A DNA stretch of 57,268 bases from Actinomycetota bacterium (lineage in GTDB: Bacteria > Actinomycetota > Actinomycetes > S36-B12), in assembly GCA_947472655.1 (NCBI GenBank), contig CANJCG010000001.1, positions 1 to 57,268 on the forward strand. Direction: 5' to 3'. Below, piece after piece: positions 6,595 to 52,251 of the stretch. How positions within the stretch are numbered: position 1 is the stretch's first letter; every line of letters begins with the position of its first letter. The position numbers and the translations under genes are program-made. The notes beneath the pieces were generated by a model, which did no database searches, had not been told where the DNA came from, and saw only the letters and a list, made by a program, of their open reading frames with translations.

Positions 6595-6597
6595 GAC

Positions 6598-7251: not shown

Positions 7252-7272
7252 GATCTCTTCCTCTCGATCGCC

Positions 7273-9331: not shown

Positions 9332-9335
<4 letters not shown>
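8634..9335 (-). CDS. nuoC: NADH-quinone oxidoreductase subunit C
   Basis: 233 aa. 30-kDa subunit family ([16 protein letters not shown]). 4-nt overlaps with nuoB and nuoD. Confidence 0.93.
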
Positions 9336-9886
<551 letters not shown>

Positions 9887-11049: not shown

Positions 11050-11099
11050 TACGCCATCCTTGCATCGAGTCTTGAGTGCTCGACATCTAGGCTAGGGCT

Positions 11100-12386: not shown

Positions 12387-12418
12387 GCGCTATCTACGAT
12401 ACCGGGCAAGCTGTAAAA

Positions 12419-14209: not shown

Positions 14210-15228
14210 GCATCCACCTTTTCATGCCAAGGCTTGGCAGCAGCAGAGTGCCATGCGCGCGCAAGGCGATCCTGCCAAAAACTGAATCGTGTGGGATCAA
14301 GAAGGGCCCGCGCAGACTCGAGCGCAGCTGGATCTGGAGCCACTCGCTGGACCTTGATTGCCCCTTGGCTAGCGGTGAGCGGCACACCTACGAGATCTGA
14401 GGCTAAAAGTTTGCCTGTACCCAGTCCACATGCGCGATCAATATCTAGGGCAGCCGCAAGTGCTAGCGCTGAACACAGTCCAATCGAGGACTCCATTGCG
14501 TTGCTTACCACGACGGGAAGTTTCACGAGTTCGGCAAGCTCCACTGCTCGCCAGACTCCGCCAACAGGTGCTGGCTTGATGATGGCGACGTCTGCGATTT
14601 CCCGAAGTTCGCGCATGGCAGTTGCATCGAGGTTTTTATCTTTTCGGATCGATTCATCAACCGCGATAGGCACGTCGATGGCAGCACGAACGGCACGAAG
14701 ATCCTCGTTGCTTTCAACCGGCTGCTCTACGTATTCCAGTCCATAGACAGCAAGTCGCTTCAAAGCACTGATCGCATCAACAGCAGACCAACAGGCATTG
14801 GCATCGATACGGATTCGGCCGATTCCGCTTCCTAGCACTGCATCCAAGGCATCACGAGTTGCAGAGACTCGTGCCTCGTCTGCGAGCGGGTCTCCGCTCA
14901 CTTTCACTTTGATCGTGGTGCAGCCGTCATTGACCGCTGCTTCGCGCACTAACACTGAAGCCACTTCAGCGCTCACAGCTGGGATGATCGCGTTGACGTT
15001 CACGGAAGTTCGCTGAGCTTGCGGCCAATCTCCGTAGGCTGCTTCGAGGGCGCTTGCAAGCCATCGGCCACTGTATTCATCACCATAATCATCAAATGGG
15101 GCGAACTCGCCCCAGCCAGACGGCCCTTGAATCAGCAGACCCTCACGAACAGTGACACCCCTAAATTCACGATGCAGTCTGATCGCGAACGGAGTGGCAG
15201 CCGCAAGGAGAAAGCCAGGCAGGCTCAC
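14206..15228 (-). CDS. menC: o-Succinylbenzoate synthase (enolase superfamily)
   Basis: 340-aa enolase-superfamily barrel ([21 protein letters not shown]). Wedged between menB and menD with 4-nt overlaps. Confidence 0.85.
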
Positions 15229-16157
15229 GGGCGTTTAGGGAACTTCGAGAAGTCTGGCTTACGTTTTTCTTTATAAGCATCGCGTCCTTCTTGAGCTTCT
15301 TCACTCATGTAGAACAACAAGGTGGCGTCACCAGCGAGCTGTTGAATCCCAGCAAGTCCATCGTCTGCTGCGTTGTGTGCGGCTTTAAGCATGCGCAATG
15401 ACAGCGGCGAGAGTTGCAACATCTCGTGAGCCATTTCAACCGTTGCAATTTCTAGGTCGACAAGCGGAACAACTTCATTCACTAAGCCCCAGTCATAGGC
15501 TTGTTCAGCGCCGTACTGACGACATAAGTACCACACTTCGCGAGCACGCTTTTGTCCGATGATGCGAGCTAGCAGACCAGAGCCATAGCCACCATCGAAG
15601 GAGCCAACTCGTGGGCCTGTTTGCCCAAAACGCGCATTTTCTGCGGCAACCGTCATGTCACACACCACATGCAGCACATGTCCGCCACCCATTGAGTAAC
15701 CAGCGACCATCGCGATGACAGGCTTAGGAATGCGTCGGATCAGAATCTGAAGATCGAGAACGTTGAGTCGTCCAACGCCAGCAGCCGCGACAGCGTCGTC
15801 GCCGATGTAGCCATCATCACCACGAATGATTTGATCGCCACCTGAACAAAACGCTAAGTCTCCTTGGCCAGTCAAGATGATCACACCAACGCGTCCATCG
15901 TCACGCGCCCGAGTGAACGCCTCGATCAGTTCAATAATGGTCTGTGGACGAAACGCATTGCGCTTCTCTGGGCGGTTAATCGTTATCTTGGCAACACCTT
16001 CTGCATCACCAAGGGAAATCTCATACTTAATATCGTTGAACTCACCCTGTGATTGCCACTCACAAGCCGGAGTCGCTGACGAATGCGCTGGGTTGGTCAT
16101 TGCTGGCGAATCAGCGGCAACGACTGGAGGCAAGATGTATCGCGTACGGGTATCCAT
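15225..16157 (-). CDS. menB: 1,4-dihydroxy-2-naphthoyl-CoA synthase
   Basis: 310-aa crotonase fold ([27 protein letters not shown]). The start could instead be the internal ATG at 16100 (MTNPAHSS). Confidence 0.95.
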
Positions 16158-16190
16158 AACCGGAACGCTATCGCGACTACGATTGGCCTA

Positions 16191-17408
16191 ATGCCGGCCC
16201 GACCACTCATTGCGATATCGGTCCCTTCGGGCCCCGATGGGTTAAGTGCGCTCATTGGTCCACTACGAGCGGCACTGAGCGGCACTGGAGCGGCGATCAC
16301 CCCCATCCCGGCGCAAACCTCCGGATTCTCACCTCAATATTTAGCACAGCTCCTGGCTGCGACTCGTCCTGACGACCCAGCTCAGACCCTAGAGACCGAC
16401 GAAGTGGCGGTGGTGCTGGCGACTTCCGGCTCAACCCAGAACCCCAAGGGCGTGCTGCATAGCGCCACAACGTTGAGCGCCTTGTCATCAGCGGTCCAAG
16501 GCGGCGCAACACCACAATGGATAGCCGCGTTACCCATCACCTCAATGGGTGGCTTCAATGTGGTCGTACGGGCCCTTGAAACAGGGCTTGACCCATTACC
16601 GATGGACAGTTTGGGTGGAGCAAAACCATTCACTCCGGCCGGATTTATCTCTGCAGTTCACTTAGCAACCCAACGATCCAGCGATATTCGGGTCTCCCTT
16701 GTCGCAGCTCAAGTTCGCCGACTTCTTAGCGATCCTGAGGGGATCGATGCGCTGCTGCAGTGTTCACAAATCTTGGTTGGCGGAGGTCCCCTGCCTTCCG
16801 TGACAGCCGATGCGGCAAGGGCCGCGGGCATCACGTTGACCACAACCTACGGTGCAACGGAAACTGCCGGTGGTGCCGTCTTTAACTCACAACCACTTGC
16901 CGGTGTCACCATTTCTATCGACCCTGAAAGTTCAGAGATCTCTTTGACTGGTGCCATGGTTGCTCTTGGCTATCGCTGCGCGCCCGAACTCACTGCGCAG
17001 CGTTTTGTGCAGGGTAGTTATCGAACTGGGGATCTTGGAACCTTCACTGACCATCTCACAGTTACCGGACGCATCGACGATGTAACAACGATTAATGGTG
17101 TCAATGTTTCGCTGCAGGCAGTTGAAGAAATTCTCAATAATTGCGAGGGGGTGGTCGCGGCTGCTGTAGTTTCTGTCCCTGATGTCGGAGATGAAGATCA
17201 ACTCTTTGCGCTTATTGAACCGGCTCGTGACGTCGATCATCACACTCTTCGCATCGAACTTCGCAGCGTTGTGAACCTTGCTCTCGGCGCGGCCGCGACT
17301 CCCCGTTATTTTGCTTTTCTCGATGCAATTCCAACATTGCCGAACAACAAAGTTGATCGGCAATCAATCCTGCAACTCACTCGCGATGGAGCGTTATGGC
17401 AACGGTAA
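16191..17408 (+). CDS. menE: o-Succinylbenzoate-CoA ligase
   Basis: Adenylate-forming enzyme motifs (LATSGSTQNPKGV, YGATETAG, RTGDLG). I placed the start at the ATG at 16191 (MPARPL...), because the track start at 16083 would overlap divergent menB. Confidence 0.85.
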   Translation: MPARPLIAISVPSGPDGLSALIGPLRAALSGTGAAITPIPAQTSGFSPQYLAQLLAATRPDDPAQTLETDEVAVVLATSGSTQNPKGVLHSATTLSALSSAVQGGATPQWIAALPITSMGGFNVVVRALETGLDPLPMDSLGGAKPFTPAGFISAVHLATQRSSDIRVSLVAAQVRRLLSDPEGIDALLQCSQILVGGGPLPSVTADAARAAGITLTTTYGATETAGGAVFNSQPLAGVTISIDPESSEISLTGAMVALGYRCAPELTAQRFVQGSYRTGDLGTFTDHLTVTGRIDDVTTINGVNVSLQAVEEILNNCEGVVAAAVVSVPDVGDEDQLFALIEPARDVDHHTLRIELRSVVNLALGAAATPRYFAFLDAIPTLPNNKVDRQSILQLTRDGALWQR

Positions 17409-18271
17409 GTCAGTGGATTGGTGGCGCTCGGCCGCGTACGTTGCCTTCAGCTATCGCTCCAGTAGCCATCGGTGGTGGGTTAGCTGCCCGTGCCGACTCC
17501 TTCATCTTGGTGCGGGTATTCCTTGCACTCGTTGTCGCCCTCGCACTTCAGATTGGTGTGAATTACGCCAATGATTACAGCGATGGAATCAAAGGAACTG
17601 ATGAAGTGCGTGTCGGACCAGTTCGCCTTGTTGGGCAGAAGCTTGCAACACCCTCACAAGTCAAATTCGCAGCCTTATCTTGTTTTGCAGCAGCGATGTT
17701 AGCCGGCCTGGCTCTGATTTTGATTACTTCACTGTGGTGGTTGACCATCGTGGGAGTGGCGTGTGTGGCCGCAGCTTGGTTTTACACTGGGGGTAAACAT
17801 CCTTACGGATACCTTGGCCTTGGTGAGGTTTTTGTTTTCGTTTTCTTCGGCTTAGTTCCCGTTCTTGGAACTGTCTACGTACAGACGTTCACCATTACTG
17901 CGGCAGATGTTTTTGCTGCCTGTGCTATCGGTCTACTCATTTGCACATTGCTCGTTGTGAATAACCTTCGCGATATTCCCACTGATATTGGCGCAGGTAA
18001 ACGAACTCTCGCAGTAAAACTTGGTGACCATCGCACTCGCTTGCTTTATGTGGGGTTTGTGGTTTCAGCCATGGTCCTCACCGTGATTGTCGCTGCCCTC
18101 ACAACCTGGTGGCTATTACTGGTCTTGGTCAGTTTTGTGCTCGGGATTCAACCCGTTCGTCTAGTCACCAGCGGCGCCGTCGGACCCAGTCTGGTCGTTG
18201 CCCTCAAGCAAAGTGGTCTGCTCGTCTTGATCTACGGACTCGGTGCTGGAGCTTTGCTCGCCTGGGCTTGA
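17396..18271 (+). CDS. menA: 1,4-dihydroxy-2-naphthoate polyprenyltransferase
   Basis: 291-aa polytopic UbiA-family protein with the Asp-rich motif NYANDYSDGIKGTD. 13-nt overlap with the end of menE. Confidence 0.9.
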   Translation: MATVSQWIGGARPRTLPSAIAPVAIGGGLAARADSFILVRVFLALVVALALQIGVNYANDYSDGIKGTDEVRVGPVRLVGQKLATPSQVKFAALSCFAAAMLAGLALILITSLWWLTIVGVACVAAAWFYTGGKHPYGYLGLGEVFVFVFFGLVPVLGTVYVQTFTITAADVFAACAIGLLICTLLVVNNLRDIPTDIGAGKRTLAVKLGDHRTRLLYVGFVVSAMVLTVIVAALTTWWLLLVLVSFVLGIQPVRLVTSGAVGPSLVVALKQSGLLVLIYGLGAGALLAWA

Positions 18272-18595
18272 TTGTGCGCGAAGGATCTCTTGCTGCCACT
18301 TATCTTCGGCAGCGGCCGAACTCTCGATCTTAGAATTGATGCCACTAAAGAATGCACCGACGCTTTCGCTCATTGCATCTCGCTGGCGGTCAAGTAACAC
18401 GATGCTGATCGCGCTTGAAATTAATAGGGCGAGAACGAGGGCCAAGATCCCCTTCACTGGAGTGAGGAACTGCAGAATTGCCCAGAGACCAAACCAGAGC
18501 AATAAGCGCGCAATGGTGTACGTCACAAAATTGAGCCACCGGCTTTTAGGTTGAGTCACAGCCTTACAGTAAGTGACGCAAAACTGCAGGTGCAC
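18161..18595 (-). CDS. DUF4229-like small membrane protein
   Basis: Two-TM core (YTIARLLLWFGLWAIL...ILALVLALLISSAISIVLLDRQRDAMS) typical of DUF4229 proteins found beside menA in actinobacteria. A more likely start is the GTG at 18559 (VTQPKSRW), preceded by AAGG. The acidic, low-complexity tail overlaps the menA 3' end. Confidence 0.65.
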   Translation of the reverse strand: MHLQFCVTYCKAVTQPKSRWLNFVTYTIARLLLWFGLWAILQFLTPVKGILALVLALLISSAISIVLLDRQRDAMSESVGAFFSGINSKIESSAAAEDKWQQEILRAQSSPGEQSSSTESVDQDEQTTLLEGNDQTGSDGAAGD

Positions 18596-18653
18596 GCTGG
18601 AGTTAGCGTGTGCGTGGAAAGAACGGGCGTTAGAATGTGCCTAGGAGGCATGT

Positions 18654-18959
18654 GTGATTAGAGTTTTGGGCATCATCTGCGTGGTGGCGCTCTACATCTG
18701 GTTCGTCGTTGACGTAATTCAGTCACCGAAATCAGGGGTGCGAAATTTACCCCGCGGCATTTGGCTGTTGATCGTGTTACTTCTCCCTATTCTCGGTGGA
18801 TTGCTTTGGGTGCTCTTTGGGCGAACAAGGCCAACTCCCGGAAAGCGACGCGGCCGTCGTGGCCCAGTGGCCCCCGATGACGACCCTCGTTTTCTGGCAA
18901 AACTTGATGAAGATGAATGGCGTCGCAAAATGCGCGAACGCCGAGGAGATGCGACCTAA
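18654..18959 (+). CDS. PLD nuclease N-terminal domain (PLDc_N)-like small membrane protein
   Basis: 101 aa. GTG start preceded by AGGAGG at 18644-18649. Two TM helices with the characteristic VVDVIQSP...VRNLPRGIWLLIVLLLPILGGLLWVLFGR pattern. Confidence 0.75.
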   Translation: MIRVLGIICVVALYIWFVVDVIQSPKSGVRNLPRGIWLLIVLLLPILGGLLWVLFGRTRPTPGKRRGRRGPVAPDDDPRFLAKLDEDEWRRKMRERRGDAT

Positions 18960-19918
18960 CTACCAACCCCTGCATATGAATGCAGGCTGTTTGCCAGAAA
19001 GTTCACCCCGAAGTAGTTCATCAAGAATGCGATCCAGCCAGCCAAGGCAATGAGTGAGGCCTTATTTCCGCGCCAGCCTGCGGTAGACCGCGCATGAAGA
19101 TAAGCCGCATAAATCACCCAGGTGATGAATGCCCACGTTTCTTTAGGGTCCCAGCCCCAGTAACGACCCCACGCGTTCTCGGCCCAGATCGCCCCAGCAA
19201 CCACGGTGAATGTCCATAGTGGGAAGGCAAAGGCGAGAGTCTTGTTCGTGATGGAACGAAGGCGCTCAGCATTAGGAATTCGCGTTGCCAAGATTCCGGT
19301 GACTTCTACGCCCGCTGCGGCTTTGCGCTCAGCGCGATCACTCACGAACGAGAGTCCGGCAGTTGCAGCAGCAATGGTGAAGGCTCCGGAACAAATGATC
19401 GCAGCAAGCACGTGAATCACGAGCCAATAGGACTTCAAAGCTGGCACCAGTTGAGCAGCTTCGGTGTAGAGCACAGTGACGGCCACCCCCAGTGTCAGCA
19501 AAACGGGGATCACGATGAAAAGTCCAAGCCAACGTAGATCAATTCTCGTGTTAGCAATCAGGAAAACGCCAAGCACGCCTAGGGCAGCAGTGATCGAGAA
19601 CTCATACATGTTGCCCCACGGCGCACGTCCGGCCCAGACTCCACGCAGGACAACACCTGCAAGTAATAGCGCAAACGCCAACCAGGTTAAGGAGATGCCA
19701 ATATTTGACGCACGTCGCCCAGGAATTTCAGTCTCTACGACAGTTTGGGTGAGAACAGCAGCGCCGCCAGCACTCATCGTAGATTCAGTCACAGAACTAC
19801 TTGCCCGCCTGCGCCCGCCTGCGAAGGAGGCAGCAAACGAAAACATCGCGAAGGTCAGAACCAACATCGATGAATAAATCATCACGTTGCTTATGCGTGC
19901 GAGTGACTCTGGGCTCAA
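18956..19918 (-). CDS. ccsB: c-type cytochrome biogenesis protein CcsB/ResC
   Basis: 320-aa polytopic protein with the Trp-rich haem-handling motif WGRYWGWDPKETWAFITW. 4-nt overlap with resB. Confidence 0.9.
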   Translation of the reverse strand: MSPESLARISNVMIYSSMLVLTFAMFSFAASFAGGRRRASSSVTESTMSAGGAAVLTQTVVETEIPGRRASNIGISLTWLAFALLLAGVVLRGVWAGRAPWGNMYEFSITAALGVLGVFLIANTRIDLRWLGLFIVIPVLLTLGVAVTVLYTEAAQLVPALKSYWLVIHVLAAIICSGAFTIAAATAGLSFVSDRAERKAAAGVEVTGILATRIPNAERLRSITNKTLAFAFPLWTFTVVAGAIWAENAWGRYWGWDPKETWAFITWVIYAAYLHARSTAGWRGNKASLIALAGWIAFLMNYFGVNFLANSLHSYAGVGS

Positions 19919-21474
19919 CGTTCCTCCTCGGTTATTCCCCGTGCGACACCTGCTGCTTGGAGGGCTTGCTCAACAAGATCAAGATCCTCTGACAGCGCGC
20001 CAATATCTTTATCTTCAAGTGTCGAAGCGCGCATAATTCCGGCAACTTGGATAACGGTAACCCCATCGCGCTCGACAACTTTCACCCACACCCGTCGGCG
20101 ACGAATGAACAGCGACATCGTGAGCCCGATGATTGCCAAGGCCGCGAAGATCAAGGCGATCTCCTTGCCTGGGTCATAGGCGATTTGGAATGACGCCCAA
20201 CGCTTGTACCCCAAGAACGCGACCGTTCCTGAGCCATCTGGCAAGGTCCAACTCTGCCCTGGCTTGAGTTGCTCGAGGCCAATCTTGGTCATGTTGTCTG
20301 TCACAAGCCGGTAGACGCTTTGGGGCTTTCCAGTATTCAAACCAAGATCACCCTTCCAAGCTGACATGAATACGGCCGGGTCATCAGGCCCAGGAAAAGT
20401 TGAGTGCGGCCCAAGAACTTCATCAAGTGCCGCAGTCGGAAGGAACAACGCCTGAATGCCAAGTTGCGGAGTGGAGTCGGGTATTTTTACGACTCCCGTT
20501 GCCGTGCCATTGCCGTCCTGTGGCAGGAATGGCACGGCATCTTCGAAAACTGCCTTGCCAGTCTCATCTGTCACTTTGATTAATGGCGCGTACCCATGAC
20601 CAACCAAGAACACCTTTGCGCCGCTCACCACTAGGGGTTCATTAACTTCAACAAGTCTGTGTTCTATCGGTGCTGTCGGGTCTACTTTGTACGACATTTC
20701 GGCTTCGAAGGCGCGAGGGGCACCCCGCTGGGCGACTCCACGCTCAAAATCAACCGTGAACTTATCAAGGGTGAAGGAGAATGGCGGAAGCGCTTGAGCA
20801 TCTGTATAGCGTCCGCCACCCCAGGCGTCGTACTGCGTAACGGTATTGGAAAATCCCGAACCCTCGCGAACAATCACATTGCCCTTCCAGCCAAAGAGCC
20901 CACCTATAGCAATCGCAGCAAGAACAAACAGCAACGACAAATGGAAAACTAAGTTCCCAGTTTCACGCAGATATCCTTTTTCGGCTGCCACCCAAGTTGG
21001 CGACTCAACCGGCCCCGCTACTACTCGCCATTTGGCTTTGCGCAATGTCTCAGTAACTTCGCTCAGCACCTCTTCAGTGCTCGCCGTAGCAATGTTCTCG
21101 CGAGTACCCGCGAAGCGTTCCAGTATCCGAGGGACTGGAGGCGGAGCGCTGCGCATCGCTCGGTAATGAACACCGACGCGAGGTATGACGCAACCAATGA
21201 GTGATACGAAAAGTAAGAGATATACCGCTGAGAACCAAGGGGAGGAGTACACCTCGAAGAACCCGAGTCGGTCCAGAATTGGTCCCCACGTCGGAGAGTT
21301 AGTTATGAAATTACGCACCTTGATCGGGTCAACACCGCGCTGAGGATAAACCGAACCGGGAACGCTCGCTAAGGCCAATAAGAAGAGCAGAACAAGCGCA
21401 GTCTTCATACTGGTCAGTTGACGCCACAGCCAACGGAAAAACCCGGTGTTGGTCATTGGTGGCAAATTCGTCAT
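19915..21474 (-). CDS. resB: Cytochrome c biogenesis protein ResB/Ccs1
   Basis: ResB-type N-terminus (FFRWLWRQLTSMKTALVLL), a large extracytoplasmic domain and a C-terminal TM helix. I placed the start at the ATG at 21474, which forms an ATGA overlap with the ccdA stop; the track start at 21513 would overlap ccdA by 43 nt. Confidence 0.88.
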   Translation of the reverse strand: MTNLPPMTNTGFFRWLWRQLTSMKTALVLLFLLALASVPGSVYPQRGVDPIKVRNFITNSPTWGPILDRLGFFEVYSSPWFSAVYLLLFVSLIGCVIPRVGVHYRAMRSAPPPVPRILERFAGTRENIATASTEEVLSEVTETLRKAKWRVVAGPVESPTWVAAEKGYLRETGNLVFHLSLLFVLAAIAIGGLFGWKGNVIVREGSGFSNTVTQYDAWGGGRYTDAQALPPFSFTLDKFTVDFERGVAQRGAPRAFEAEMSYKVDPTAPIEHRLVEVNEPLVVSGAKVFLVGHGYAPLIKVTDETGKAVFEDAVPFLPQDGNGTATGVVKIPDSTPQLGIQALFLPTAALDEVLGPHSTFPGPDDPAVFMSAWKGDLGLNTGKPQSVYRLVTDNMTKIGLEQLKPGQSWTLPDGSGTVAFLGYKRWASFQIAYDPGKEIALIFAALAIIGLTMSLFIRRRRVWVKVVERDGVTVIQVAGIMRASTLEDKDIGALSEDLDLVEQALQAAGVARGITEEER

Positions 21475-22214
21475 AGCGCTGTCTCGAATCCAGGAATAGT
21501 TACCCGCAACCAAATAGTGAAATCAAGCCAAAGTCCAGTGACGAGTAGTACTCCCACTGCTACCAGCATCGCACCACCGATGCGCATCACAAGTTCGTAG
21601 TGGTTACGGATCCAACCGATCGCTCGTCCCATTCGGGTGAAGAGCAATCCAAGCAAAACAAATGGCAAACCAAGCCCTAAGCAATAGACCAGTGACAACA
21701 AGGCTCCACGCGCTGCGCTTGCTTCTGTAAAAGCCAAACTTTGTACAGCAGCAAGGGTCGGTCCGATGCACGGAGACCATCCCAAACCGAAAAGAACCCC
21801 AAGGATTGGTGCGCCTGCAACCCCCCAGGTGGGTAAGCGATGCATGCGCCATTCGCGTTGCAGTCCAGGAATAAATCCCATGAACGCTAGGCCCATCACA
21901 ATGACAACTACCCCAAGGACGCGATCAATGGTTTCCTGATATTCCAACAACGTTGATCCGATGGAGCCAAAGAGAACTCCATAGGACACGAAAATGATGC
22001 TGAAGCCGGCGACAAACAACACACTGCCAAGAAGCACCCGGCCGCGATTGCCTTTGACATCCGCGAGTTCTGCACCGGTGAGCCCCGTGATGTAAGACAA
22101 ATAGCCCGGAGCTAGCGGTAGGACACAAGGCGAAGCAAAAGCTAGGAGTCCAGCAGCGAAGGCCAGGGGTAACGCGAAAAGCAAGGTGCCTTCTGAGATC
22201 ACATCCGTGATCAT
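21471..22214 (-). CDS. ccdA: Cytochrome c biogenesis thiol-disulfide transporter CcdA (DsbD family)
   Basis: 247 aa, six TM helices, with the two conserved Cys motifs ASPCVLPL and WSPCIGP. Confidence 0.9.
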   Translation of the reverse strand: MITDVISEGTLLFALPLAFAAGLLAFASPCVLPLAPGYLSYITGLTGAELADVKGNRGRVLLGSVLFVAGFSIIFVSYGVLFGSIGSTLLEYQETIDRVLGVVVIVMGLAFMGFIPGLQREWRMHRLPTWGVAGAPILGVLFGLGWSPCIGPTLAAVQSLAFTEASAARGALLSLVYCLGLGLPFVLLGLLFTRMGRAIGWIRNHYELVMRIGGAMLVAVGVLLVTGLWLDFTIWLRVTIPGFETAL

Positions 22215-22804
22215 GATGTGCTCTTTTGTACGTCATCGATCACACTGCGAAGCGCGGCTTGCGTCGTCGCACCAAGAATACGGGCTGCGACGTTGCCCTG
22301 AGCATCAACAATCAACGTTGACGGAATGGCTTGCGCTGGCAAGGTTTCGCGAAAGAGCAACTGCACTTGTGCTTGCGTATCGATCGCCTGCGGATAAGTG
22401 ATCCCGTATCTATCGACAAAGTTTTGTGCAGCCGTGTCTGAATCCCGCGTATCAAGACCAACGAACTGCACTTTTTTCTGGTTGGACTTCGCCCACACCT
22501 CTTGCAGCTCGGGTGCTTCTGCGCGACAAGGTGCACACCATGAAGCCCACACGTTCATCACAACAACTTTGCCAAGTTGTTTGCTGAGTGTGAAATCAGA
22601 TCCGCCCAAAGTCCTGAGAGTGAAATCTGGGGCCGGTACTCGCTTCTCGACTGCCACGACTTCGATTGAACCGTCACCGGCAACGAAGTTGGTCTCGCTG
22701 CCCGCAGATGCCGTGTTCTTTGCATCGCTACAGCCAGATACCAGCACAGACGACATAACTAATAATGCGACACCGGAAGCGATTCTTGTATTGGTAATGC
22801 GCAT
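22211..22804 (-). CDS. TlpA/ResA-like thioredoxin-fold lipoprotein
   Basis: 197 aa. Lipobox LVSGC after a signal peptide and the CxxC active site WASWCAPCRAE. Sits in a ccdA-resB-ccsB context. Confidence 0.87.
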   Translation of the reverse strand: MRITNTRIASGVALLVMSSVLVSGCSDAKNTASAGSETNFVAGDGSIEVVAVEKRVPAPDFTLRTLGGSDFTLSKQLGKVVVMNVWASWCAPCRAEAPELQEVWAKSNQKKVQFVGLDTRDSDTAAQNFVDRYGITYPQAIDTQAQVQLLFRETLPAQAIPSTLIVDAQGNVAARILGATTQAALRSVIDDVQKSTS

Positions 22805-22827
22805 GGATGCTCAGGCGGTGACGAATG

Positions 22828-23475
22828 TCACGCGCCAGCCACCTTGCTGGCTTTTTCAAGCAAATCTCGTGAAGGCTCGGTGTAGGTGATTGCCAAGAGT
22901 TCGCCGTCTCGGTAGGTCAGTGAAGTAATCGATGCGAGCGAGCATTGCCGGCTGCGCGGGTCATGCCACAAGCGGCGTTGCTCTGCTGCAAGGCGGGCAA
23001 TCCAGATCGGCAATTGATGACTCACAAGTACTACTTCGCCGCCAAGGAATTGATCACGCGCTGCATGAACAGCCTCGGTCATGCGAGCCGCGACAATGTC
23101 GTACGGCTCTCCCCAGGACGGCTTAAAAGGGTTGTACAGGTGCTTCCAAGTGCGCGGCTGCTTGAGAACTCCGTCACCAACACTTACGCGTTGTCCTTCA
23201 AAGACATTGTCAGCTTCAATGAGGCGCGGATCAGTCGAGATTTCCAGGCCGTGAGTAGCTGCCATCGGAGACGCAGTTTGCTGAGCACGCTCCATTGGTG
23301 AAGAGACAACTCCCGTGATGTCGTGACCACTCAATGCCTTGGCTGCACGCTGGGCCATTTCATGCCCAAGATCAGATAACACATAACCTGGAAGGCGTCC
23401 GTAAAGCACGCCCTGAGGATTGTCGACTTCTCCGTGGCGCAGAAGATGAACAACAGTGCGCTCTGGTGTAGCCAT
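22828..23475 (-). CDS. Histidine phosphatase (phosphoglycerate mutase) family protein
   Basis: 215 aa. Catalytic RHGE motif (LLRHGEVDNP). Occupies the same position as the mycobacterial PGM-family gene upstream of the ccdA cluster. Confidence 0.85.
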   Translation of the reverse strand: MATPERTVVHLLRHGEVDNPQGVLYGRLPGYVLSDLGHEMAQRAAKALSGHDITGVVSSPMERAQQTASPMAATHGLEISTDPRLIEADNVFEGQRVSVGDGVLKQPRTWKHLYNPFKPSWGEPYDIVAARMTEAVHAARDQFLGGEVVLVSHQLPIWIARLAAEQRRLWHDPRSRQCSLASITSLTYRDGELLAITYTEPSRDLLEKASKVAGA

Positions 23476-23481
23476 GTGCAG

Positions 23482-25212
23482 TTACGCCTTACGTCGCGTT
23501 GGAGTACGTCGTCGACTTGGTCGCCAACTACCCTCGCCCGCTTCAAGTGCGGCCAGACGTAGTTCTTCACCATGAGCGGCAAGCGCTTCAACGAGCCCGA
23601 TCAACGTAGTGCTGTCGGCTTCGACATCTACGCGAAGACCGTGCTCTTGCGCAGCCTTAACAGTGAGCGGGCCAATGCAAGCCACCACTGTGGTGTGGTG
23701 CGGTTTACCCGCAATGCCAACTAAGTTGCGAACAGTGCTGCTCGAGGTGAACAGCACAGCATCGAAGCCACCCGTTTTAATGGCTTCGCGAGTTTCAGCC
23801 GGAGGTGGTGCAGCACGCACAGTTCGGAAGGCCGTGATGTCTTCGACTTCCCAACCTAATTCCGTTAAACCGGCGACAAGTGACTCAGTGGCGATGTCAG
23901 CCCGCGGTAAAAAGATGCGGTTGATCGGATCGGTGAGCGAATCGTAGGCAGGCCATTCCTCGAGCAAGGCGGCGGTTGTTTGATCACCTTCGGTTACCAA
24001 ATCTGGACGCACACCAAAATCGATTAAGGCCGCGATTGTTGCTTCGCCAACTGCTGCAACTTTGAGTCCGGCAAACGAACGGGCATCGAGTCCATATGAG
24101 GCCAACTTCTCGCGGATTGCACGAACAGCATTAACCGAAGTGAATCCGATCCACTCATAGCGACCCGAAACTAAACCGTGGATAGCGCGATCAATTTGCT
24201 GTGGGGTGCGTGGCGGCTCAACGGAAATCGTTGGCACCTCCATCGGCACGGCTCCATGGCGGCGCAATAGCGCTGAGATGGAATCTGTTGGCTCCTGCGT
24301 GCGTGGAATCAATACGCGCCAGCCAAAGAGCGGCTTAGCTTCAAACCAGTCAGCCTTTTCACGTTGGGCAACAACCTCACCCACGACTACCACGCCAGGA
24401 CCAGCCTGCTTTGAGCGCTTTGCGATTGCACCAATTTCACTCAGGGTGCCAGCAAGGGTGCGCTGATCAACCGTGGTGCCTTGACGAGTGACAGCGATTG
24501 GCGTCTTTGGATCAGCGCCAGCGGCAATCAGATTTGCTGCAATTTCGGCGCAAGAATCAGCACCATTGAGATACACCGTAGTGATACCTGGCTGCATCAG
24601 ATCAGCCCATGGAAGATCTACTTCAGTGCCATCTACTACTCGAATCTGGCGAACCCGACCGCCAGTAAGGCTGAAGCCTGCATAAGCGGGAATACCCGTG
24701 ACATCACTAACACCGGGAGCGACTTCGAATGGCACCTTTGCTTTGCGCAAAGCCGCAGCTTCAGCAACTAAGGAACCATCAATGATTGGATCTCCAGCGA
24801 TGAGCCGCACCACATTCTTGCCTTCGCGAGCAGCATCGATCATGGCCTTGCCATGATCTCCAGCAACAATAAATTCTGTTGTTGCGCTTGCATACACACG
24901 AGCGATGGCTTCAGTTGATTCATCGGCGACGATGACATCGGCATCACGCATCAAGGCGACTGCTCGCAAAGTGAGGAGATCTGGATCTCCGGGTCCTGCT
25001 GCGACGAGTGCCACTGTTCCCACGGCTATCTTCTTGCGGACGACCTTTGCCGGAACTGTTGCGGTATCTGCTGCGGTTGCTGCACGAGTCACTGGGTGCT
25101 CTCCTGCGGTAGTGGTGGAAGTGGACGTCTTCGTTGGAGCAACCTCCGGTTGGGGAGGAACTACCTGTTTTGGCACCTTGGGTTTCGAGGTGCTGAGGGA
25201 TTGTGTTGTCAT
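23482..25212 (-). CDS. hemD: Bifunctional uroporphyrinogen-III C-methyltransferase / uroporphyrinogen-III synthase fusion
   Basis: 576 aa. A Pro/Thr/Ala-rich N-terminus of about 65 aa, then a tetrapyrrole methylase region (VAAGPGDPDLLTLRA, GDPIIDG), then about 250 aa resembling HemD. This matches the architecture of the mycobacterial hemD/cysG fusion. Its start overlaps the rex stop (25209-25212). Confidence 0.85.
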   Translation of the reverse strand: MTTQSLSTSKPKVPKQVVPPQPEVAPTKTSTSTTTAGEHPVTRAATAADTATVPAKVVRKKIAVGTVALVAAGPGDPDLLTLRAVALMRDADVIVADESTEAIARVYASATTEFIVAGDHGKAMIDAAREGKNVVRLIAGDPIIDGSLVAEAAALRKAKVPFEVAPGVSDVTGIPAYAGFSLTGGRVRQIRVVDGTEVDLPWADLMQPGITTVYLNGADSCAEIAANLIAAGADPKTPIAVTRQGTTVDQRTLAGTLSEIGAIAKRSKQAGPGVVVVGEVVAQREKADWFEAKPLFGWRVLIPRTQEPTDSISALLRRHGAVPMEVPTISVEPPRTPQQIDRAIHGLVSGRYEWIGFTSVNAVRAIREKLASYGLDARSFAGLKVAAVGEATIAALIDFGVRPDLVTEGDQTTAALLEEWPAYDSLTDPINRIFLPRADIATESLVAGLTELGWEVEDITAFRTVRAAPPPAETREAIKTGGFDAVLFTSSSTVRNLVGIAGKPHHTTVVACIGPLTVKAAQEHGLRVDVEADSTTLIGLVEALAAHGEELRLAALEAGEGSWRPSRRRTPTRRKA

Positions 25213-26012
25213 GCCTGCATCACCTGCGCTAGCGGCGTCAGGTCATCGACTCGACGTTGCTCGTGGAAGGCAAGTATTTGAAGTTCAACTGCAAGGTCGA
25301 CTTTGCGCACCTCGACACCTACCGGAACGGTGAGTACCGATGGCGCGAAATTCAAAATACTGCGCACGCCAGTAGCAACAAGTCGATCGCATACCTTTTG
25401 CGCGGCACTGGCCGGTGTTGCAATCACCGCAATGCTTGCACTGCTCGCCTTAACGAGATTCTCAAGTTCGGTGAGCGGTTGCACCACTAGGTCTCTTCCA
25501 CCCGTACACACTTTTTCGCCAATGACGTCGGGGTGTGAATCTAGAAGCCCGACAATTTCAAATCCACGTGAGGCAAAACCTTTATACGAAACCAAAGCGT
25601 GGCCCAAATTGCCAACGCCAACGATCACTACGCCCCAAGGCTGACTCAAACCAAGTTCGCGACTGATGTGATAACTCAAGAACGCAACTTCGTAGCCAAC
25701 GCCTCGAGTGCCATACGAACCAAGATGTGACAGGTCTTTGCGTAACTTCGCCGAACTAACACCGCACCTTTGCGCCAAAGTGTCGGAGGAAACTGTGTGC
25801 ACTCCGTCATCAGCTAGCCCACGCAAAACCCGGTGATATATGGGTAACCGCGCAACGGTGGCGTCGGGAATTCCGCGCCCATCGTCGCGTGTGCGACTCG
25901 AGCCAAGTTGGCGGGACAACGACACGGTGCTCCAGGGTTGTTTCACTAGGCGCTGGTATCGGGAGATACCGCGGGAAGACCTCGTGAATGCGGCCTTTGA
26001 ACTACCGGCCAC
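25209..26012 (-). CDS. rex: Redox-sensing transcriptional repressor Rex
   Basis: Rex signature GIPDATVARLPIYHRVL, SAKLRKDLSHLGSYGTRGVGYEV and a Rossmann region VVIVGVGNLGHAL. The true start may be the GTG at 25925 (preceded by GGAG), which would shorten the product from 267 to 238 aa. Confidence 0.9.
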   Translation of the reverse strand: MAGSSKAAFTRSSRGISRYQRLVKQPWSTVSLSRQLGSSRTRDDGRGIPDATVARLPIYHRVLRGLADDGVHTVSSDTLAQRCGVSSAKLRKDLSHLGSYGTRGVGYEVAFLSYHISRELGLSQPWGVVIVGVGNLGHALVSYKGFASRGFEIVGLLDSHPDVIGEKVCTGGRDLVVQPLTELENLVKASSASIAVIATPASAAQKVCDRLVATGVRSILNFAPSVLTVPVGVEVRKVDLAVELQILAFHEQRRVDDLTPLAQVMQA

Positions 26013-48509: not shown

Positions 48510-49393
48510 TTGACTCCCTTTTCGGTGCTCAAGACATCTAACAGTGCCTCAGCAAGTGACGTCGAGAGCAAGCCGGCCGCAACGCTGCGATCAGCCGTGA
48601 CCCGCGCCATCGCCCGGTAGGCATCGGCAGCAGTGCTCGATTGCTCAGCGATCACTGCAAGATGTGTAGCAACTGTGGCTGCATCACCCCGAGCAACCGG
48701 TCCGGTAAGTGCTTGATCACCTAGCCTTAACGCGTTATCCAAGCTGGCACTCAACAGTGGAGCCAGCACTCGCTGCGGATAGTCAATTCCGGCCTGCTGT
48801 AACAACTCGGCACTCTGAGCAACAAGAGTGATTAAATAATTTGATCCAAAAGCCAAGGCAGCGTGATACAGGGCTCGCTTTTCTTCAGGAACCCAAATCG
48901 GGTCGCCGCCAATTTCAATAACTAGAGCCTCAGCTGCCGAACGCAATTCATCTGGTGCAGTCACCCCGAATGGACACTCATCCAGTCTGGTGAGATCCAT
49001 ACTCGTTCCGGTAAATGTCATCACCGGATGTATTGCCAGTGGTAGCGCCCCAAGTTTTGTTACCGGATCCATGACTTCAGTTCCATAGCGTCCACTGAGG
49101 TGTGCCCAAAACTGACCTGGTTTCACGACATTGGCTGCAGCAAGCCCCTGCAATAGCCCGGGTAAAACATCATCAGGCACTGCGACAACTACAAGGTCTG
49201 AAGCGGCAACCACTTCAGCGATATCAACGATGGGAACACCGGGAAGTAACGCCTGAGCGCGCAATTGAGAAAGATCTGAAACGGCTGAAACTGCGACGAC
49301 CACATGACCGGCGCGGTGCAAGGCAGCACCAATAACTGATCCTGCGCGACCGGTGCCAATGACGCCGACACGAAGGCGGGGAGGAGCCGTCAC
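48506..49393 (-). CDS. Rossmann-fold NAD(P)-binding protein with DUF2520-like C-terminal domain
   Basis: 295 aa. Dinucleotide motif RVGVIGTGRAGSVIG. Conserved partner immediately upstream of panC in actinobacteria, with a 4-nt overlap with panC. Confidence 0.72.
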   Translation of the reverse strand: MTAPPRLRVGVIGTGRAGSVIGAALHRAGHVVVAVSAVSDLSQLRAQALLPGVPIVDIAEVVAASDLVVVAVPDDVLPGLLQGLAAANVVKPGQFWAHLSGRYGTEVMDPVTKLGALPLAIHPVMTFTGTSMDLTRLDECPFGVTAPDELRSAAEALVIEIGGDPIWVPEEKRALYHAALAFGSNYLITLVAQSAELLQQAGIDYPQRVLAPLLSASLDNALRLGDQALTGPVARGDAATVATHLAVIAEQSSTAADAYRAMARVTADRSVAAGLLSTSLAEALLDVLSTEKGVK

Positions 49394-49429
49394 AGTTAAG
49401 AGCGTAGAGGCTCGCTAACGTCTTGTGCT

Positions 49430-50338
49430 GTGGCGGCTCTCAAACCTTGGATTGACGGCTGGCAAGAGGCTGCATTTGGCCCTGACGGCTTCTACCGGAA
49501 GCAACATCCCTACGACCATTTCGCCACGTCCGTATCCCAGGATGCCTTGGCCCCAGCCCTGCTGCCCTATCTCGTCAGCGCCCTAGACCACCTTGATTCG
49601 GTAACCGTGGTTGACGTGGGAGCCGGCGATGGTGATCTCGGAGTCCAACTGCATGACCTTTTGGATGAAAACCTGCGCTTACGGGTGCATTTTCTGGCCT
49701 TGGATCTTGGACTCAGACCCATCCATTTGCCGGAGTTCATCCAATGGCGCCAAGGTGACGCCCGCGAAACGATCGCCACAATCGCTGCCGGAAACATGAT
49801 CCTGATTGCTCATGAGTTCCTAGACGATCTGCCTTGTGATGTAGTTGAAGTTGATGAAGCAGGCCTGGTGCGCCTTGGCATGGTTGAAGGAAGTACGCAG
49901 GAACTCACCTTTGGTCAGGAGCTACACGCTGCAGAACATCAGCAGCACTTGCAATGGTTGGCAAACTGGTGGCCAGTGCAACGACCGCTTATGCGGGCTG
50001 AGGTTGGCAGAAGCCGGGATGAATTTTGGAACCTCGCAACCTCTCGCATAACGGCTGGTTACTCCATTGCTATCGACTACGGACACATCAAGGCCGACCG
50101 CGAACGCGGACTTTGGGATGGAGGCACGCTCACTGGCTACCGAGACTCGATGACGGTGTCCCCTACTGCAAACAATTCGGTCAATCTCACTGCACATGTT
50201 GCGATCGATGCAATCGCTGCGGCATCGGCAGGAAATCCAGTAACCCGTACCTTTCGATTAGGACCAACCCCAGATTTTTGGTGGACGGTTGCGGCCTATG
50301 GAATTGAGTTCCCGCAACCTGACAAGATGCCTACGTGA
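49430..50338 (+). CDS. MidA/NDUFAF7-type SAM-dependent methyltransferase (DUF185 / Methyltransf_28-like)
   Basis: 302 aa, GTG start. The family hallmarks occur in order: GFYRKQHPYDHFATS, SAM loop VVDVGAGDGDLG, IAHEFLDDLPCDVVE, IAIDYGH, GTLTGYRDS, NLTAHVAIDAI. The stop overlaps the next ORF's start (GTGA at 50335-50338). Confidence 0.8.
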   Translation: MAALKPWIDGWQEAAFGPDGFYRKQHPYDHFATSVSQDALAPALLPYLVSALDHLDSVTVVDVGAGDGDLGVQLHDLLDENLRLRVHFLALDLGLRPIHLPEFIQWRQGDARETIATIAAGNMILIAHEFLDDLPCDVVEVDEAGLVRLGMVEGSTQELTFGQELHAAEHQQHLQWLANWWPVQRPLMRAEVGRSRDEFWNLATSRITAGYSIAIDYGHIKADRERGLWDGGTLTGYRDSMTVSPTANNSVNLTAHVAIDAIAAASAGNPVTRTFRLGPTPDFWWTVAAYGIEFPQPDKMPT

Positions 50339-51450
50339 CTGAAGTCTTGGTAGCGATCGGCGCAGCGCGGCATATCCCCGCGGATTTGTATTTAGATCTC
50401 GGTGAACTCCATCCCACCGGCCATGGGGCTATGCAACTGGCCCTCAACGTTGATGACGGCATCATCACCGCAGCTGATCCTCGCATTGGGTTTTTGCACC
50501 GCAGTGCTGAAAAACTCTTCGAGGCTCGCGACTATCGCCAACTCATGATGCTCGCGAATAGACATGACTGGGTGAGCGCATTCAGCTCAGAGTTGTCCAT
50601 CGCACTTGTTCTAGAAGATGCGATGGGGATCCTGACCCCCGAACGAGCGACTTGGTCTCGCATGCTGCTTGCCGAGATGAATCGAGTGACCGCAAATCTG
50701 ATCATGCTGGGTGCCTCTGCTCCCGGCTTTTCTCACCTCCTAGCTAGTCGCGAAATATTTCTTGAGTTACTTGAACAACTCACAGGCTCGAGAATTCATC
50801 CGATGTTTAACCGCATTGGCGGTATCGCTACTGGCTGCGATCCGCAGTGGCTGGATTCACTATTTTCAGCGAGTCAAAATTTACAACTCGCACTTGCCAA
50901 TCTTCCAAAGCAGATACAGCAGCAGTTTGCACCACTCATCGGTGTTGGAGTTATTACTTCCGACGCAATTCATACCTACGGCTTATCCGGCACATCGGCT
51001 TGGGCTTCCGGTGTGAAGAACGACTTGCGAGTGTCAGCGCCATATCTTGCATACCAAGATGTCCAATCTCTTTTACCCACTAGGCACCACTCAGGTGACA
51101 TCACGTCAAGATTTGTGCTGATCGCCGAGCAACTCCTAGCAAGTCTGACCATCATTGATGCAGCCATTGATTGGCTTAAAGGCGCTGGAGCAGGGCCCAC
51201 CTCTGTGCAACTACCAAAGGTAGTGCGCGCACCCGAACTCACCGCATATGGCGCTATCGAGGGGCCGCTAGGCACGATGGGCGTTTTGCTGGACAGCGTC
51301 GGCGAGAAAACACCTTGGCGCTTAAAGTTACGCACCCCTTCTTTCGCAACTATTCAAAGTTTTGAAAGCATTCTGATTGGACTCCCACTTACTGCGCTCG
51401 TACCCATGCTGCAGTCGTGCGCGTTTATGGTTGGCGACGCTGATCGGTAG
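50335..51450 (+). CDS. Orphan NuoD / complex I 49-kDa subunit paralog (shortened, function unknown)
   Basis: 371 aa. Alignable by eye along its whole length to the NuoD at 7273-8637 (LHPTGHG/QHPSTHG; [20 protein letters not shown]; [42 protein letters not shown]; [18 protein letters not shown]; [18 protein letters not shown]; GDADR/GGVDR). It lacks about 35 N-terminal and about 50-60 internal residues. It has no NiFe-hydrogenase Cys motifs. Confidence 0.85.
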   Translation: MTEVLVAIGAARHIPADLYLDLGELHPTGHGAMQLALNVDDGIITAADPRIGFLHRSAEKLFEARDYRQLMMLANRHDWVSAFSSELSIALVLEDAMGILTPERATWSRMLLAEMNRVTANLIMLGASAPGFSHLLASREIFLELLEQLTGSRIHPMFNRIGGIATGCDPQWLDSLFSASQNLQLALANLPKQIQQQFAPLIGVGVITSDAIHTYGLSGTSAWASGVKNDLRVSAPYLAYQDVQSLLPTRHHSGDITSRFVLIAEQLLASLTIIDAAIDWLKGAGAGPTSVQLPKVVRAPELTAYGAIEGPLGTMGVLLDSVGEKTPWRLKLRTPSFATIQSFESILIGLPLTALVPMLQSCAFMVGDADR

Positions 51451-51484
51451 CAGCTCAAAGTTTGCGACCAATGCTCGCTAACTA

Positions 51485-51772
51485 CTAAGAGCGTTCGCGA
51501 ATATATGTTGCAAACCGAGCACGAAGGAGCGCCTCGGTCGTAGCGTCAAATTGGGTATCGCCGAACATTTCACGCACCGCGCGAACCGTCTCAATAAACG
51601 TGCCACCAACAGCTCCGAGATCGCCGCCTTCGCCTTCAATGGCAGACATGCTTGGCATATGGCCAAAGAGTTCGGTAAAAAAACCCAGATCCAGATGCTT
51701 CTCAGCAAGGTGAAAAGCTTGCTGACGCAATTGATCAAATGGGAGGTCTTCCAAGATTGGCTCAGTGCTCAT
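51485..51772 (-). CDS. Hypothetical acidic protein (95 aa)
   Basis: Its start overlaps the DUF3180 stop by 4 nt, making it the last gene of the fol string. Composition is protein-like. I recognise no family. Confidence 0.5.
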   Translation of the reverse strand: MSTEPILEDLPFDQLRQQAFHLAEKHLDLGFFTELFGHMPSMSAIEGEGGDLGAVGGTFIETVRAVREMFGDTQFDATTEALLRARFATYIRERS

Positions 51773-52251
51773 GTACTGACCTTACCTAGCCCCGAATCGC
51801 TAGACGCACCGTCCGACGGCAAACGGCACAGATGCTCAAGCCACAGAGCCGCAATAACCAAGGCCAGGGCTCCAATCGCTGCTGCAACCGCGGCCCAAAG
51901 GCTCTGATTTCCTGCTTGGGTTAATCGATCAGGCAAGGTTCCAGCCGCCACGCCAGCATAAAACCCTGAAACAATCGCCCCTGTTCGCGAGGCAGCCATT
52001 GCCAATGCCGCCGTGCGTGCAGCCACGATGGGCGGCATTGGGTGTGAACCTGGTTTGCGTTGCAGCCGAGGTCGGGCCAGTAGCGCCCAGACGAAGACCG
52101 AGGCTGCAAGCAGCCACAACGTCACTGCCGCCAAAAAGGGAACAGGTAGGGCTCGACCGGATTGGCCATCCATAAACGATGCAATCGCCCAGCCAATGAC
52201 CCCTGATAGTGCAGCCAGTACGAGTAGCAGTCCAATTCGAGTGGGCTTCAT
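51769..52251 (-). CDS. DUF3180-like four-TM membrane protein
   Basis: 160-aa, Ala/Leu-rich protein with four predicted TM helices. It follows folK, as its conserved counterpart does in mycobacteria. Confidence 0.7.
   Translation of the reverse strand: MKPTRIGLLLVLAALSGVIGWAIASFMDGQSGRALPVPFLAAVTLWLLAASVFVWALLARPRLQRKPGSHPMPPIVAARTAALAMAASRTGAIVSGFYAGVAAGTLPDRLTQAGNQSLWAAVAAAIGALALVIAALWLEHLCRLPSDGASSDSGLGKVST

Follow-up and report, generated by a model that had tools for sequence, protein, structure and literature searches.

A MidA/NDUFAF7-family methyltransferase gene paired with a divergent, arginine-bearing NuoD paralogue: a candidate enzyme–substrate operon in Actinomycetes

The locus of interest lies in a 57,268 nt stretch of DNA from a freshwater actinobacterium (Actinomycetota bacterium, S36-B12; contig CANJCG010000001.1 of assembly GCA_947472655.1, positions 1–57,268 of the forward strand; hereafter, the window). 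Two overlapping plus-strand genes encode (i) an S-adenosylmethionine (SAM)-dependent methyltransferase of the MidA/NDUFAF7 family (49430–50338; 302 aa; PF02636), and (ii) NuoD2, a divergent, short-form paralogue of the complex I subunit NuoD/NDUFS2 (50335–51450; 371 aa; PF00346). The genes share a GTGA overlap (50335–50338), in which the NuoD2 start codon (GTG, 50335–50337) overlaps the methyltransferase stop codon (TGA, 50336–50338). Human complex I cannot be assembled without methylation of NDUFS2 by NDUFAF7; in bacteria, the function of this methylation has been inferred in silico only. We propose, with modest confidence, that the two genes constitute an enzyme–substrate operon: the methyltransferase would modify Arg56 of NuoD2, and NuoD2, far from being a spare subunit, would serve as an alternative Q-module protein whose quinone site has been remodelled.

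The upstream gene was classified by domain and by fold. Its product matches PF02636 (Methyltransf_28) with 59.5 bits against a cut-off of 23.3, and its homologues carry the JGI label 'SAM-dependent MidA family methyltransferase'. The AlphaFold2 model of the protein (predicted local distance difference test, pLDDT, 93.7) was compared with known structures using Foldseek; the top six matches are Dictyostelium MidA (5ZTZ/5ZU0), Burkholderia COG1565 (4F3N/4G67) and Rhodopseudomonas DUF185 (1ZKD, two chains), with query TM-scores (TMq) of 0.66–0.75, while all other methyltransferases score 0.46 or less. Five motifs are found along the plus strand: HFATS (49517–49531), VDVGAGDG (49610–49633; the SAM-binding GxGxG), AHEFLDDLP (49808–49834), IDYGH (50072–50086) and LTAHVAID (50186–50209). 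In 25 homologues, the corresponding patterns (HFxTS, VDVGAGDG, AxExLDxxP, DYGH and TAHVxxD) are invariant or nearly so, and we take them as counterparts of the motifs in NDUFAF7 itself. Pfam domain and fold both identify the gene upstream of NuoD2 as a MidA/NDUFAF7-family methyltransferase.

The downstream gene encodes a protein with a NuoD fold. PF00346 matches NuoD2 with 135.6 bits (cut-off 24), and the match to the 366-aa NuoD model NF008974 spans the model from end to end. NuoD2 nonetheless lies under every NCBIfam NuoD equivalog cut-off (NF008974, 228.4 of 522; NF004739, 225.5 of 360; TIGR01962, 212 of 459), while the NuoD encoded by the window's nuo operon passes such cut-offs with 576 and 571 bits. 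The two proteins are ~26% identical. NuoD2 is without the ~50-residue N-terminal extension of the operon NuoD, and a 41-residue segment of the latter (25 residues in Thermus) is absent from 200/200 members of the NuoD2 family. The operon NuoD and that of Mycobacterium smegmatis carry ~16 extra residues relative to Thermus and mitochondria (about residues 330–370), inside the segment that is missing from NuoD2. An AlphaFold2 model of NuoD2 (pLDDT 85.2; predicted TM-score, pTM, 0.88) returns 49-kDa/NuoD chains in Foldseek, with TMq 0.77–0.84 (~0.8). The four Cys metal ligands of the [NiFe] hydrogenase large subunit, the parent superfamily (RxCGxC ... DPCxxC), are lacking, NuoD2 reading R-H-D-W-V-S and F-M-V-G-D-A-D-R; no significant match to the corresponding Pfam family (PF00374) was obtained for NuoD2.

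Residue equivalence was established by a phmmer search of NuoD2 against all PDB chains. The best matches are mitochondrial NDUFS2 chains (E ~1e-43; human 6e-44), with NuoD2 residues 17–117 aligned gap-free. On the 430-aa mature human chain, Arg56 corresponds to Arg85, Trp79 to Tyr108 and His30 to His59; on the 463-aa precursor chain, Arg56 corresponds to Arg118. A preliminary description of the window had given Arg85 (mature) or Arg118 (precursor) as the methyl-arginine of NDUFS2 and had placed Arg56 of the paralogue at the same site; the first statement matches Rhein 2013 (PMC3829151) and Hameedi 2021 (PMC8042128), and the second is borne out by the alignment. The Yarrowia NUCM chain (6gcs_C, residues 85–353 against NuoD2 20–280) gives a concordant picture, with Arg56 at R121, Arg76 at R141 and Trp79 at Y144, in agreement with the earlier proposal that R-x-D-Y in Yarrowia comprises R141 and Y144. 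Across species, the quinone ligands are numbered Tyr108 = Tyr144 = Tyr87 and His59 = His38 (PMC9120487).

The NuoD2 reading frame contains, in order, GELHPTGHGAMQL, PRIGFLHRSAEKL and MLANRHDWVSAF. Arg56 (codon CGC, 50500–50502) belongs to an HRSAEK motif (50497–50514) within PRIGFLHRSAEK (the corresponding stretch in Streptomyces reads IGYMHRGAEK), and Arg76 and Trp79 (codon TGG, 50569–50571) to an R-H-D-W motif (50560–50571) within LANRHDWVSAF; the codon positions initially given for Arg56 and Trp79 are correct. His155 lies in the segment GSRIHPMFNRIGG (50785–50823) and is equivalent to NDUFS2 His190, the redox-Bohr His of cluster N2. The N2-facing residues of NDUFS2—the HRGxE arginine, Arg105 and His190—are therefore all kept in NuoD2, as Arg56, Arg76 (the N2-proximal Arg, R141 in Yarrowia) and His155. 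In the NuoD2 model, pLDDT falls below 50 only at residues 56–62 (the Arg loop) and 154–161 (the His155 loop). Since the same regions pack on NuoB around N2 in complex I, we infer from the model that both loops are free in isolated NuoD2, open to a modifying enzyme, and ordered only against a partner.

The working NuoD of the window presents a different residue at the same site. The nuo operon occupies positions 327–9886 of the minus strand and includes NuoD (7273–8637) and NuoB (9332–9886). The operon NuoD carries Thr91 (8365–8367) at the methyl-arginine position, Tyr114 (8296–8298) as quinone ligand, and HGVLRL in its beta1-beta2 loop. The paralogue has Arg56, Trp79 and HGAMQL at these places, as originally read from the two translations. 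Thr at the NDUFS2-arginine position is common to the operon NuoD, Thermus and M. smegmatis: the motif reads YLHTGFEK in Thermus Nqo4 and YLHTGIEK in M. smegmatis NuoD, against HIGLLHRGTEK in human and Drosophila and HHRGAEK in E. coli NuoCD, so that the division made in the preliminary description, between HRGAEK in E. coli and HTG in Thermus and actinobacteria, agrees with the sequences. In Thermus, where the NDUFS2 arginine is replaced by Thr, R83 of Nqo6 fills the same space by cluster N2; the arginine at the NDUFS2 site is dimethylated in Paracoccus and not in E. coli (Hameedi 2021, PMC8042128). Arg75 of the operon NuoB (9662–9664) aligns with this 'intersubunit switch' arginine, Thermus Nqo6 Arg83, and with an Arg in M. 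smegmatis, while Yarrowia has T122 there. By homology, NuoD and NuoB of the housekeeping complex follow the Thr/Arg switch known from Thermus, with the N2-proximal arginine on NuoB. With Thr91 in NuoD and Arg75 in NuoB, the working complex I therefore has no NuoD arginine to methylate. The position of NDUFS2 His190 is of interest too: mitochondria and Thermus carry the N2 redox-Bohr His here, the operon NuoD has Asn (in GLRMNNAY), M. smegmatis Asn, and NuoD2 His. At both N2-facing positions, NuoD2 is more 'mitochondrial' than the operon NuoD.

The quinone site of NuoD2 is altered. The quinone Tyr (Tyr108 in bovine, Y144 in Yarrowia, Y87 in Thermus) is replaced by Trp79. The beta1-beta2 loop reads HPTGHGAMQL, with His26 and His30 in HPTGH (50410–50424); His30, the equivalent of quinone ligand His59, is retained, yet the window protein and about half of the family have lost the Asp160 loop. 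Two types can be told apart. Nanopelagicales-type NuoD2, including the window protein, carries GELHPTGHGAMQL in the loop, together with a 6–7-residue deletion that removes the Asp160 loop. The Streptomyces and Actinoplanes types have a near-canonical beta1-beta2 loop and Glu at the Asp160 position (Glu or Asp in the Streptomyces type). Both loops are, as far as can be read from the alignment, degenerate in the window lineage, and the Nanopelagicales type is the more degenerate of the two around the quinone site. Because Tyr has become Trp79 and the Asp160 loop is deleted, both canonical quinone proton-donor arrangements (Tyr108, and the His59–Asp160 pair) are predicted to be compromised in the window NuoD2. 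Trp79 is not simply an adaptation to menaquinone, since the operon NuoD keeps its Tyr alongside a full menaquinone pathway encoded in the same window. The non-canonical role that had been suggested for the paralogue is supported by these features, namely the invariant Trp, the missing 41-residue segment (200/200) and the loss of the Asp160 loop in this lineage.

The diagnostic residues are fixed across a large family. An alignment of 206 sequences (200 family members plus structural references; gapped sequences left out of residue counts) has Arg56 in 197/197, Arg76 in 198/198, Trp79 in 198/198 and His155 in 199/199 ungapped sequences, down to ~42% identity. The conservation of Arg56 and Trp79 among orthologues, on which the initial proposal depended, is thus complete. 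His26 is present in 195/200 family sequences and His30 in 174/200 (Gln in 19), and ~50 residues are invariant across members that are 43–83% identical. A homology search with NuoD2 returned 120 proteins of 44–99% identity, the named ones being from Nanopelagicales, 'Actinobacteria' and Actinomycetales. Peptide patterns specific to the family, scanned against genomes, matched at least 600 genome stretches, from which 80 loci were kept; these include Streptomyces, Kitasatospora, Actinoplanes, Nonomuraea, Streptosporangium, Microbispora, Aeromicrobium, Motilibacter and Acidothermaceae, and six further loci were fetched later. A further NuoD2 subclade consists of Propionibacteriales (Microlunatus, Micropruina, Cutibacterium). 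As a route to other phyla or operon contexts, this divergent subclade was considered and rejected, since its members are all Propionibacteriales and their synteny is unchanged.

When 1.84 billion cluster representatives were searched exhaustively with phmmer, 255 proteins reached E ≤ 1e-30, and Arg and Trp occur together in 110 of the best 150 of these. In a neighbour-joining tree, the sequences with R-H-D-W and His155 form one clade, whose nearest outgroups are short NuoD and NuoCD proteins with Arg and Tyr. The 32 outgroup representatives comprise 29 with Arg+Tyr, one with Arg+Phe and two with Thr+Tyr; outgroup proteins are without His at 155, the exceptions being the canonical-length proteins P0362 and P0377. 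Two short NuoCD-like proteins outside the NuoD2 clade (P0365 and P0379) have R-M-D-W without His155, and a basal sequence (P0306) has R-I-D-W with His155. Tyr may have given way to Trp on more than one occasion, or P0306 could represent the transition.

Three oddities stand out within the family. Fusion of long NuoD2-family proteins to NuoC or to the methyltransferase was rejected: PF00346 alone was found in them, and their N-terminal extensions are therefore probably miscalled start codons. Decay of NuoD2 at one locus (L077) was likewise rejected: where the gene seems to be truncated, a base is ambiguous and the frame changes, which is indicative of faulty assembly. Lastly, a contig titled 'MAG: Bifidobacterium breve' (L002) has the Nanopelagicales-type gene order, with proteins 42–77% identical to those of the window. 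To our knowledge, Bifidobacterium is not expected to carry genes of this block, and the contig is therefore probably mis-binned.

The two genes are linked across Actinomycetes. Among 82 loci with NuoD2, surveyed over flanks of ~6–10 kb, the methyltransferase is within the flank in 73, including loci from Nanopelagicales, Streptomyces, Actinoplanes, Nonomuraea and Propionibacteriales. It lies upstream on the same strand in 64 (at a distance of ≤300 nt in 48 of the 64, and ≤20 nt or overlapping in 25), on the opposite strand within the flank in nine, and is not seen in the flank in nine, two of which are contig ends. The 4-nt stop/start overlap recurs in Kitasatospora, Streptomyces and Micromonosporaceae. 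Both genes belong to a conserved block, nadB-panC-DUF2520 | methyltransferase-NuoD2 | DUF3180-folK-folB-folP-folE-ftsH, and in Streptomyces the pair is intact even where it is no longer beside DUF2520. That the co-encoded enzyme is the Arg56 methyltransferase, as first proposed, is supported by this Actinomycetes-wide linkage, by the MidA/NDUFAF7 fold and by the Thr/Arg switch of the housekeeping subunits.

These observations suggest the following scheme. Positions 49430–51450 would form a two-gene module, probably translationally coupled, in which the first gene encodes a MidA/NDUFAF7-type SAM-dependent protein arginine methyltransferase and the second its dedicated substrate, NuoD2. The latter would be an ancient Actinomycete paralogue of the Q-module NuoD, resembling the short NuoD of 11-subunit complexes without an N-module, and apparently retaining the residues that face cluster N2 in mitochondrial complex I (H-R-x-x-E with Arg56, Arg76 and His155). 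Housekeeping complex I would need no NuoD arginine, Thr91 being compensated by NuoB Arg75, as in Thermus. The putative steps are: (i) methylation of Arg56 in newly made NuoD2, while the Arg loop is exposed, (ii) docking of methylated NuoD2 onto a NuoB-type Fe-S partner, and (iii) in organisms with a second nuo set that has no D gene (reported in Streptomyces), service of NuoD2 as the obvious D subunit of that set. Given that Tyr is always Trp and that the Asp160 loop is deleted in this lineage, NuoD2 could presumably not provide quinone protons in the canonical manner; its acceptor chemistry would be altered, or there may be none.

Several observations weigh against this proposal. The methyltransferase is ~90 residues shorter than MidA and 1ZKD, and is 12–19% identical to 5ZTZ/5ZU0, 4F3N/4G67 and 1ZKD. 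In some lineages, no methyltransferase gene is seen within 6–10 kb of NuoD2 (loci L007, L008, L084, L086 (Cutibacterium), L014, L022, L036 and L068); Arg, Trp and His155 are intact where checked (L007 and L008), and the role of the arginine is therefore not wholly dependent on an adjacent enzyme. At L007, L008, L084 and L086, NuoD2 directly adjoins DUF2520 or Lsr2; in these lineages the methyltransferase is either elsewhere in the genome or dispensable. Furthermore, a NuoB-like partner or other nuo gene was found within 6 kb of nuoD2 in 0/80 genome-scan loci, and no other nuo gene is listed in the Pfam gene tables for the six loci fetched later, so that in none of these loci is NuoD2 inside a nuo operon. 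A second NuoB, NuoC, NuoH, NuoI or NuoJ was looked for in the window and in the 80 loci, and none was found. Were canonical NuoB, with Arg75, the sole partner of NuoD2, two arginines would compete for one site. This speaks against a plain exchange of one subunit for the other, and would allow NuoD2 a stand-alone or a regulatory function.

Such considerations give rise to alternative explanations, none of which we think probable. One that we regard as a tentative possibility is a self-contained NuoD2–methyltransferase module, conserved among Actinomycetes, that is independent of any second nuo set; NuoD2 could then be a methyl-arginine-dependent factor docking on NuoB/N2, or a soluble redox/menaquinone sensor. 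In the docking version, one possibility is that NuoD2 templates, gates or regulates the assembly or activity of the single housekeeping complex I. If true, either version would put the Q-module fold to a new biological use, and would be the first case in Gram-positives of a system dedicated to protein arginine methylation. A swap of isoforms, in which NuoD2 (methylated or not) at times replaces NuoD in housekeeping complex I to give a complex whose quinone site is lined by Trp and which is catalytically altered or inactive, requires no second nuo set; it would fit the single nuo operon visible in the window, the persistence of NuoD2 in small-genome lineages (Nanopelagicales, Cutibacterium) and the intact NuoD fold. 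Given that NuoB Arg75 already fills the site of NuoD2 Arg56 (PMC8042128), which would create an interface with two arginines, and that NuoD2 is ~26% identical to the operon NuoD without its 41-residue segment and N-terminal extension, we consider a swap rather unlikely. The enzyme might instead act on NuoB Arg75 or on a protein outside complex I, its adjacency to nuoD2 being inherited synteny: the pan-fol block that holds both genes is very stable, in several orders insertions of 1–4 kb split the pair while the methyltransferase stays beside DUF2520, and some genomes have NuoD2 without a nearby methyltransferase. The preliminary description had named the arginine of the paralogue as the only candidate substrate in the window. 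NuoD2 is indeed the only NuoD-family protein there with the target arginine; the claim is slightly overstated, in that NuoB Arg75, expected at the same three-dimensional position next to N2, is a conceivable alternative target. Against a target other than NuoD2 stand the stop/start overlaps that recur in distant lineages, the departure of the Streptomyces pair from DUF2520 as a unit, and the direct binding of NDUFS2 by NDUFAF7 and MidA (PMC3829151, PMC9006661), and we judge it fairly improbable.

Another alternative places NuoD2 outside the respiratory complexes altogether, as a soluble sensor, a regulator, or a chaperone or template for the maturation of Fe-S proteins or NuoB, perhaps in a stable heterodimer with the methyltransferase. 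NuoD2 is an orphan in 86/86 loci with context examined (80 from the genome scan and six later), with no membrane-subunit genes nearby, and its predicted lack of quinone proton donors and the degenerate beta1-beta2 and Asp160 loops of the window lineage would be expected of such a protein. The most conserved residues of NuoD2, however, are those that face NuoB and N2 in complex I, and the near-canonical loop and Glu at the Asp160 position in the Streptomyces type suggest a real Q-module context there; we think a stand-alone role improbable. It is scarcely credible that NuoD2 is a functionless, pseudogene-like relic of a duplicated nuoD. Its scores under all NCBIfam NuoD cut-offs and the loss of the quinone Tyr could be read as decay, yet the conservation data contradict this: the reading frame is intact, ~50 residues are invariant among members that are otherwise 43–83% identical, the gene is present in at least 600 genome stretches, and the family is a monophyletic clade with fixed replacement residues, unlike the product of random decay.

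The surroundings of the pair contain further features. The DUF2520 gene is divergent from the methyltransferase gene, with the start codons 36 nt apart (49393–49430). No sigma-70-like promoter was found in 49200–51900, where a scan for promoters and terminators was uninformative. Together with the short start spacing, this suggests leaderless transcripts or promoters within coding sequence. A 95-aa open reading frame (51485–51772, minus strand) lies between NuoD2 and the DUF3180 gene. It is without a Pfam or NCBIfam match, and is 71–87% identical among Nanopelagicales-type loci, above the conservation of either neighbour; a 96-aa gene is called at its position in L084 and in the P0050 contig. 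In six Streptosporangiales-type loci (L028 (1511–5983), L031, L060, L062, L064 and L069; genera Streptosporangium, Nonomuraea, Microbispora and Sphaerisporangium), a PF00266 gene and a large open reading frame without Pfam match stand on the same strand between the methyltransferase and NuoD2. These insertions are lineage-specific, being confined to these six loci. The PF00266 product is a class-V aminotransferase (Aminotran_5), cysteine-desulfurase-like; a desulfurase-like gene next to one for a protein facing an Fe-S cluster may deserve attention. Elsewhere in the window, positions 10357–26012 are rich in respiratory-chain genes: a menaquinone cluster (ubiE/menG-like, and men F, D, C, B, E and A-type domains), the cytochrome c maturation genes CcsA, ResB and CcdA, and a Rex-type redox-sensing repressor (25209–26012).

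The annotation of this gene as nuoD2 is already known; the literature searched mentions neither its diagnostic residues, nor that it is paired with a MidA-type enzyme, nor how it contrasts with the Thr/Arg switch of the housekeeping subunits, and no functional study of nuoD2 was found there either. The long-annotated nuoD2 thereby gains a defining signature: R-H-D-W plus His155, in a short form. A bacterial operon that pairs the enzyme with its candidate substrate would offer a simple genetic and biochemical system (for example, in tractable Streptomyces) for the function of methyl-arginine, with a built-in control in the housekeeping complex, which carries its arginine on NuoB. That NuoD2 is probably not a redundant quinone-reducing subunit bears on the annotation of respiratory chains in Streptomyces, Cutibacterium and the abundant freshwater acI lineage.

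In mitochondria, NDUFAF7 symmetrically dimethylates NDUFS2 Arg85, early in assembly (Rhein et al. 2013, PMC3829151). The actinobacterial pair resembles this system in that the enzyme is of the same Pfam family and fold, the NuoD2 arginine is at the homologous position in H-R-x-x-E-K, and NuoD2 keeps the other N2-facing residues (the Arg105 and His190 equivalents). It differs in that it is a bacterial operon, with the arginine on a paralogue rather than on the working NuoD; in that NuoD2 has Trp for Tyr108 and is missing the 41-residue segment; and in that the enzyme is ~90 residues shorter than MidA, and the methylation is here predicted.

Among actinobacterial systems, the Streptomyces nuo2 set (nuoA2, B2, H2–N2) is without an N-module and without a D gene, the orphan nuoD2 being located elsewhere (PMC8388888, PMC3765725). 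The window gene appears to be the gene annotated as nuoD2 in Streptomyces, judging from annotation and synteny. NuoD2 is of the same clade as the orphan NuoD-like genes of Streptomyces, Kitasatospora and Actinoplanes, with which it also shares its chromosomal surroundings. The Streptomyces loci fit the published description, which is what would link the nuoD2 of the literature to the R-H-D-W clade; the papers found offer no residue analysis, methyltransferase link or function for it. In Candidatus (Ca.) Actinomarina, a gene for an NDUFAF7 homologue is reported to come after an 11-subunit nuo operon (bioRxiv 10.1101/2021.02.01.429150), which supports a general association of the enzyme family with N-module-less complex I in Actinobacteria. 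NuoD2 shares with the short NuoD of 11-subunit complex I (NF008974, 366 aa) its length, its architecture and the absence of the 41-residue segment. Unlike the short NuoD, it scores 228 bits against a cut-off of 522 and lies outside a nuo operon, and the outgroup proteins mostly have Arg+Tyr, without His155. Finally, the Thermus Nqo4/Nqo6 switch has its counterpart in Thr91 of the window NuoD and Arg75 of NuoB, as also in M. smegmatis complex I (8e9g); what sets the window genome apart from Thermus is that it also encodes another NuoD-family protein, one of 'mitochondrial' type in which the D subunit itself bears the arginine.

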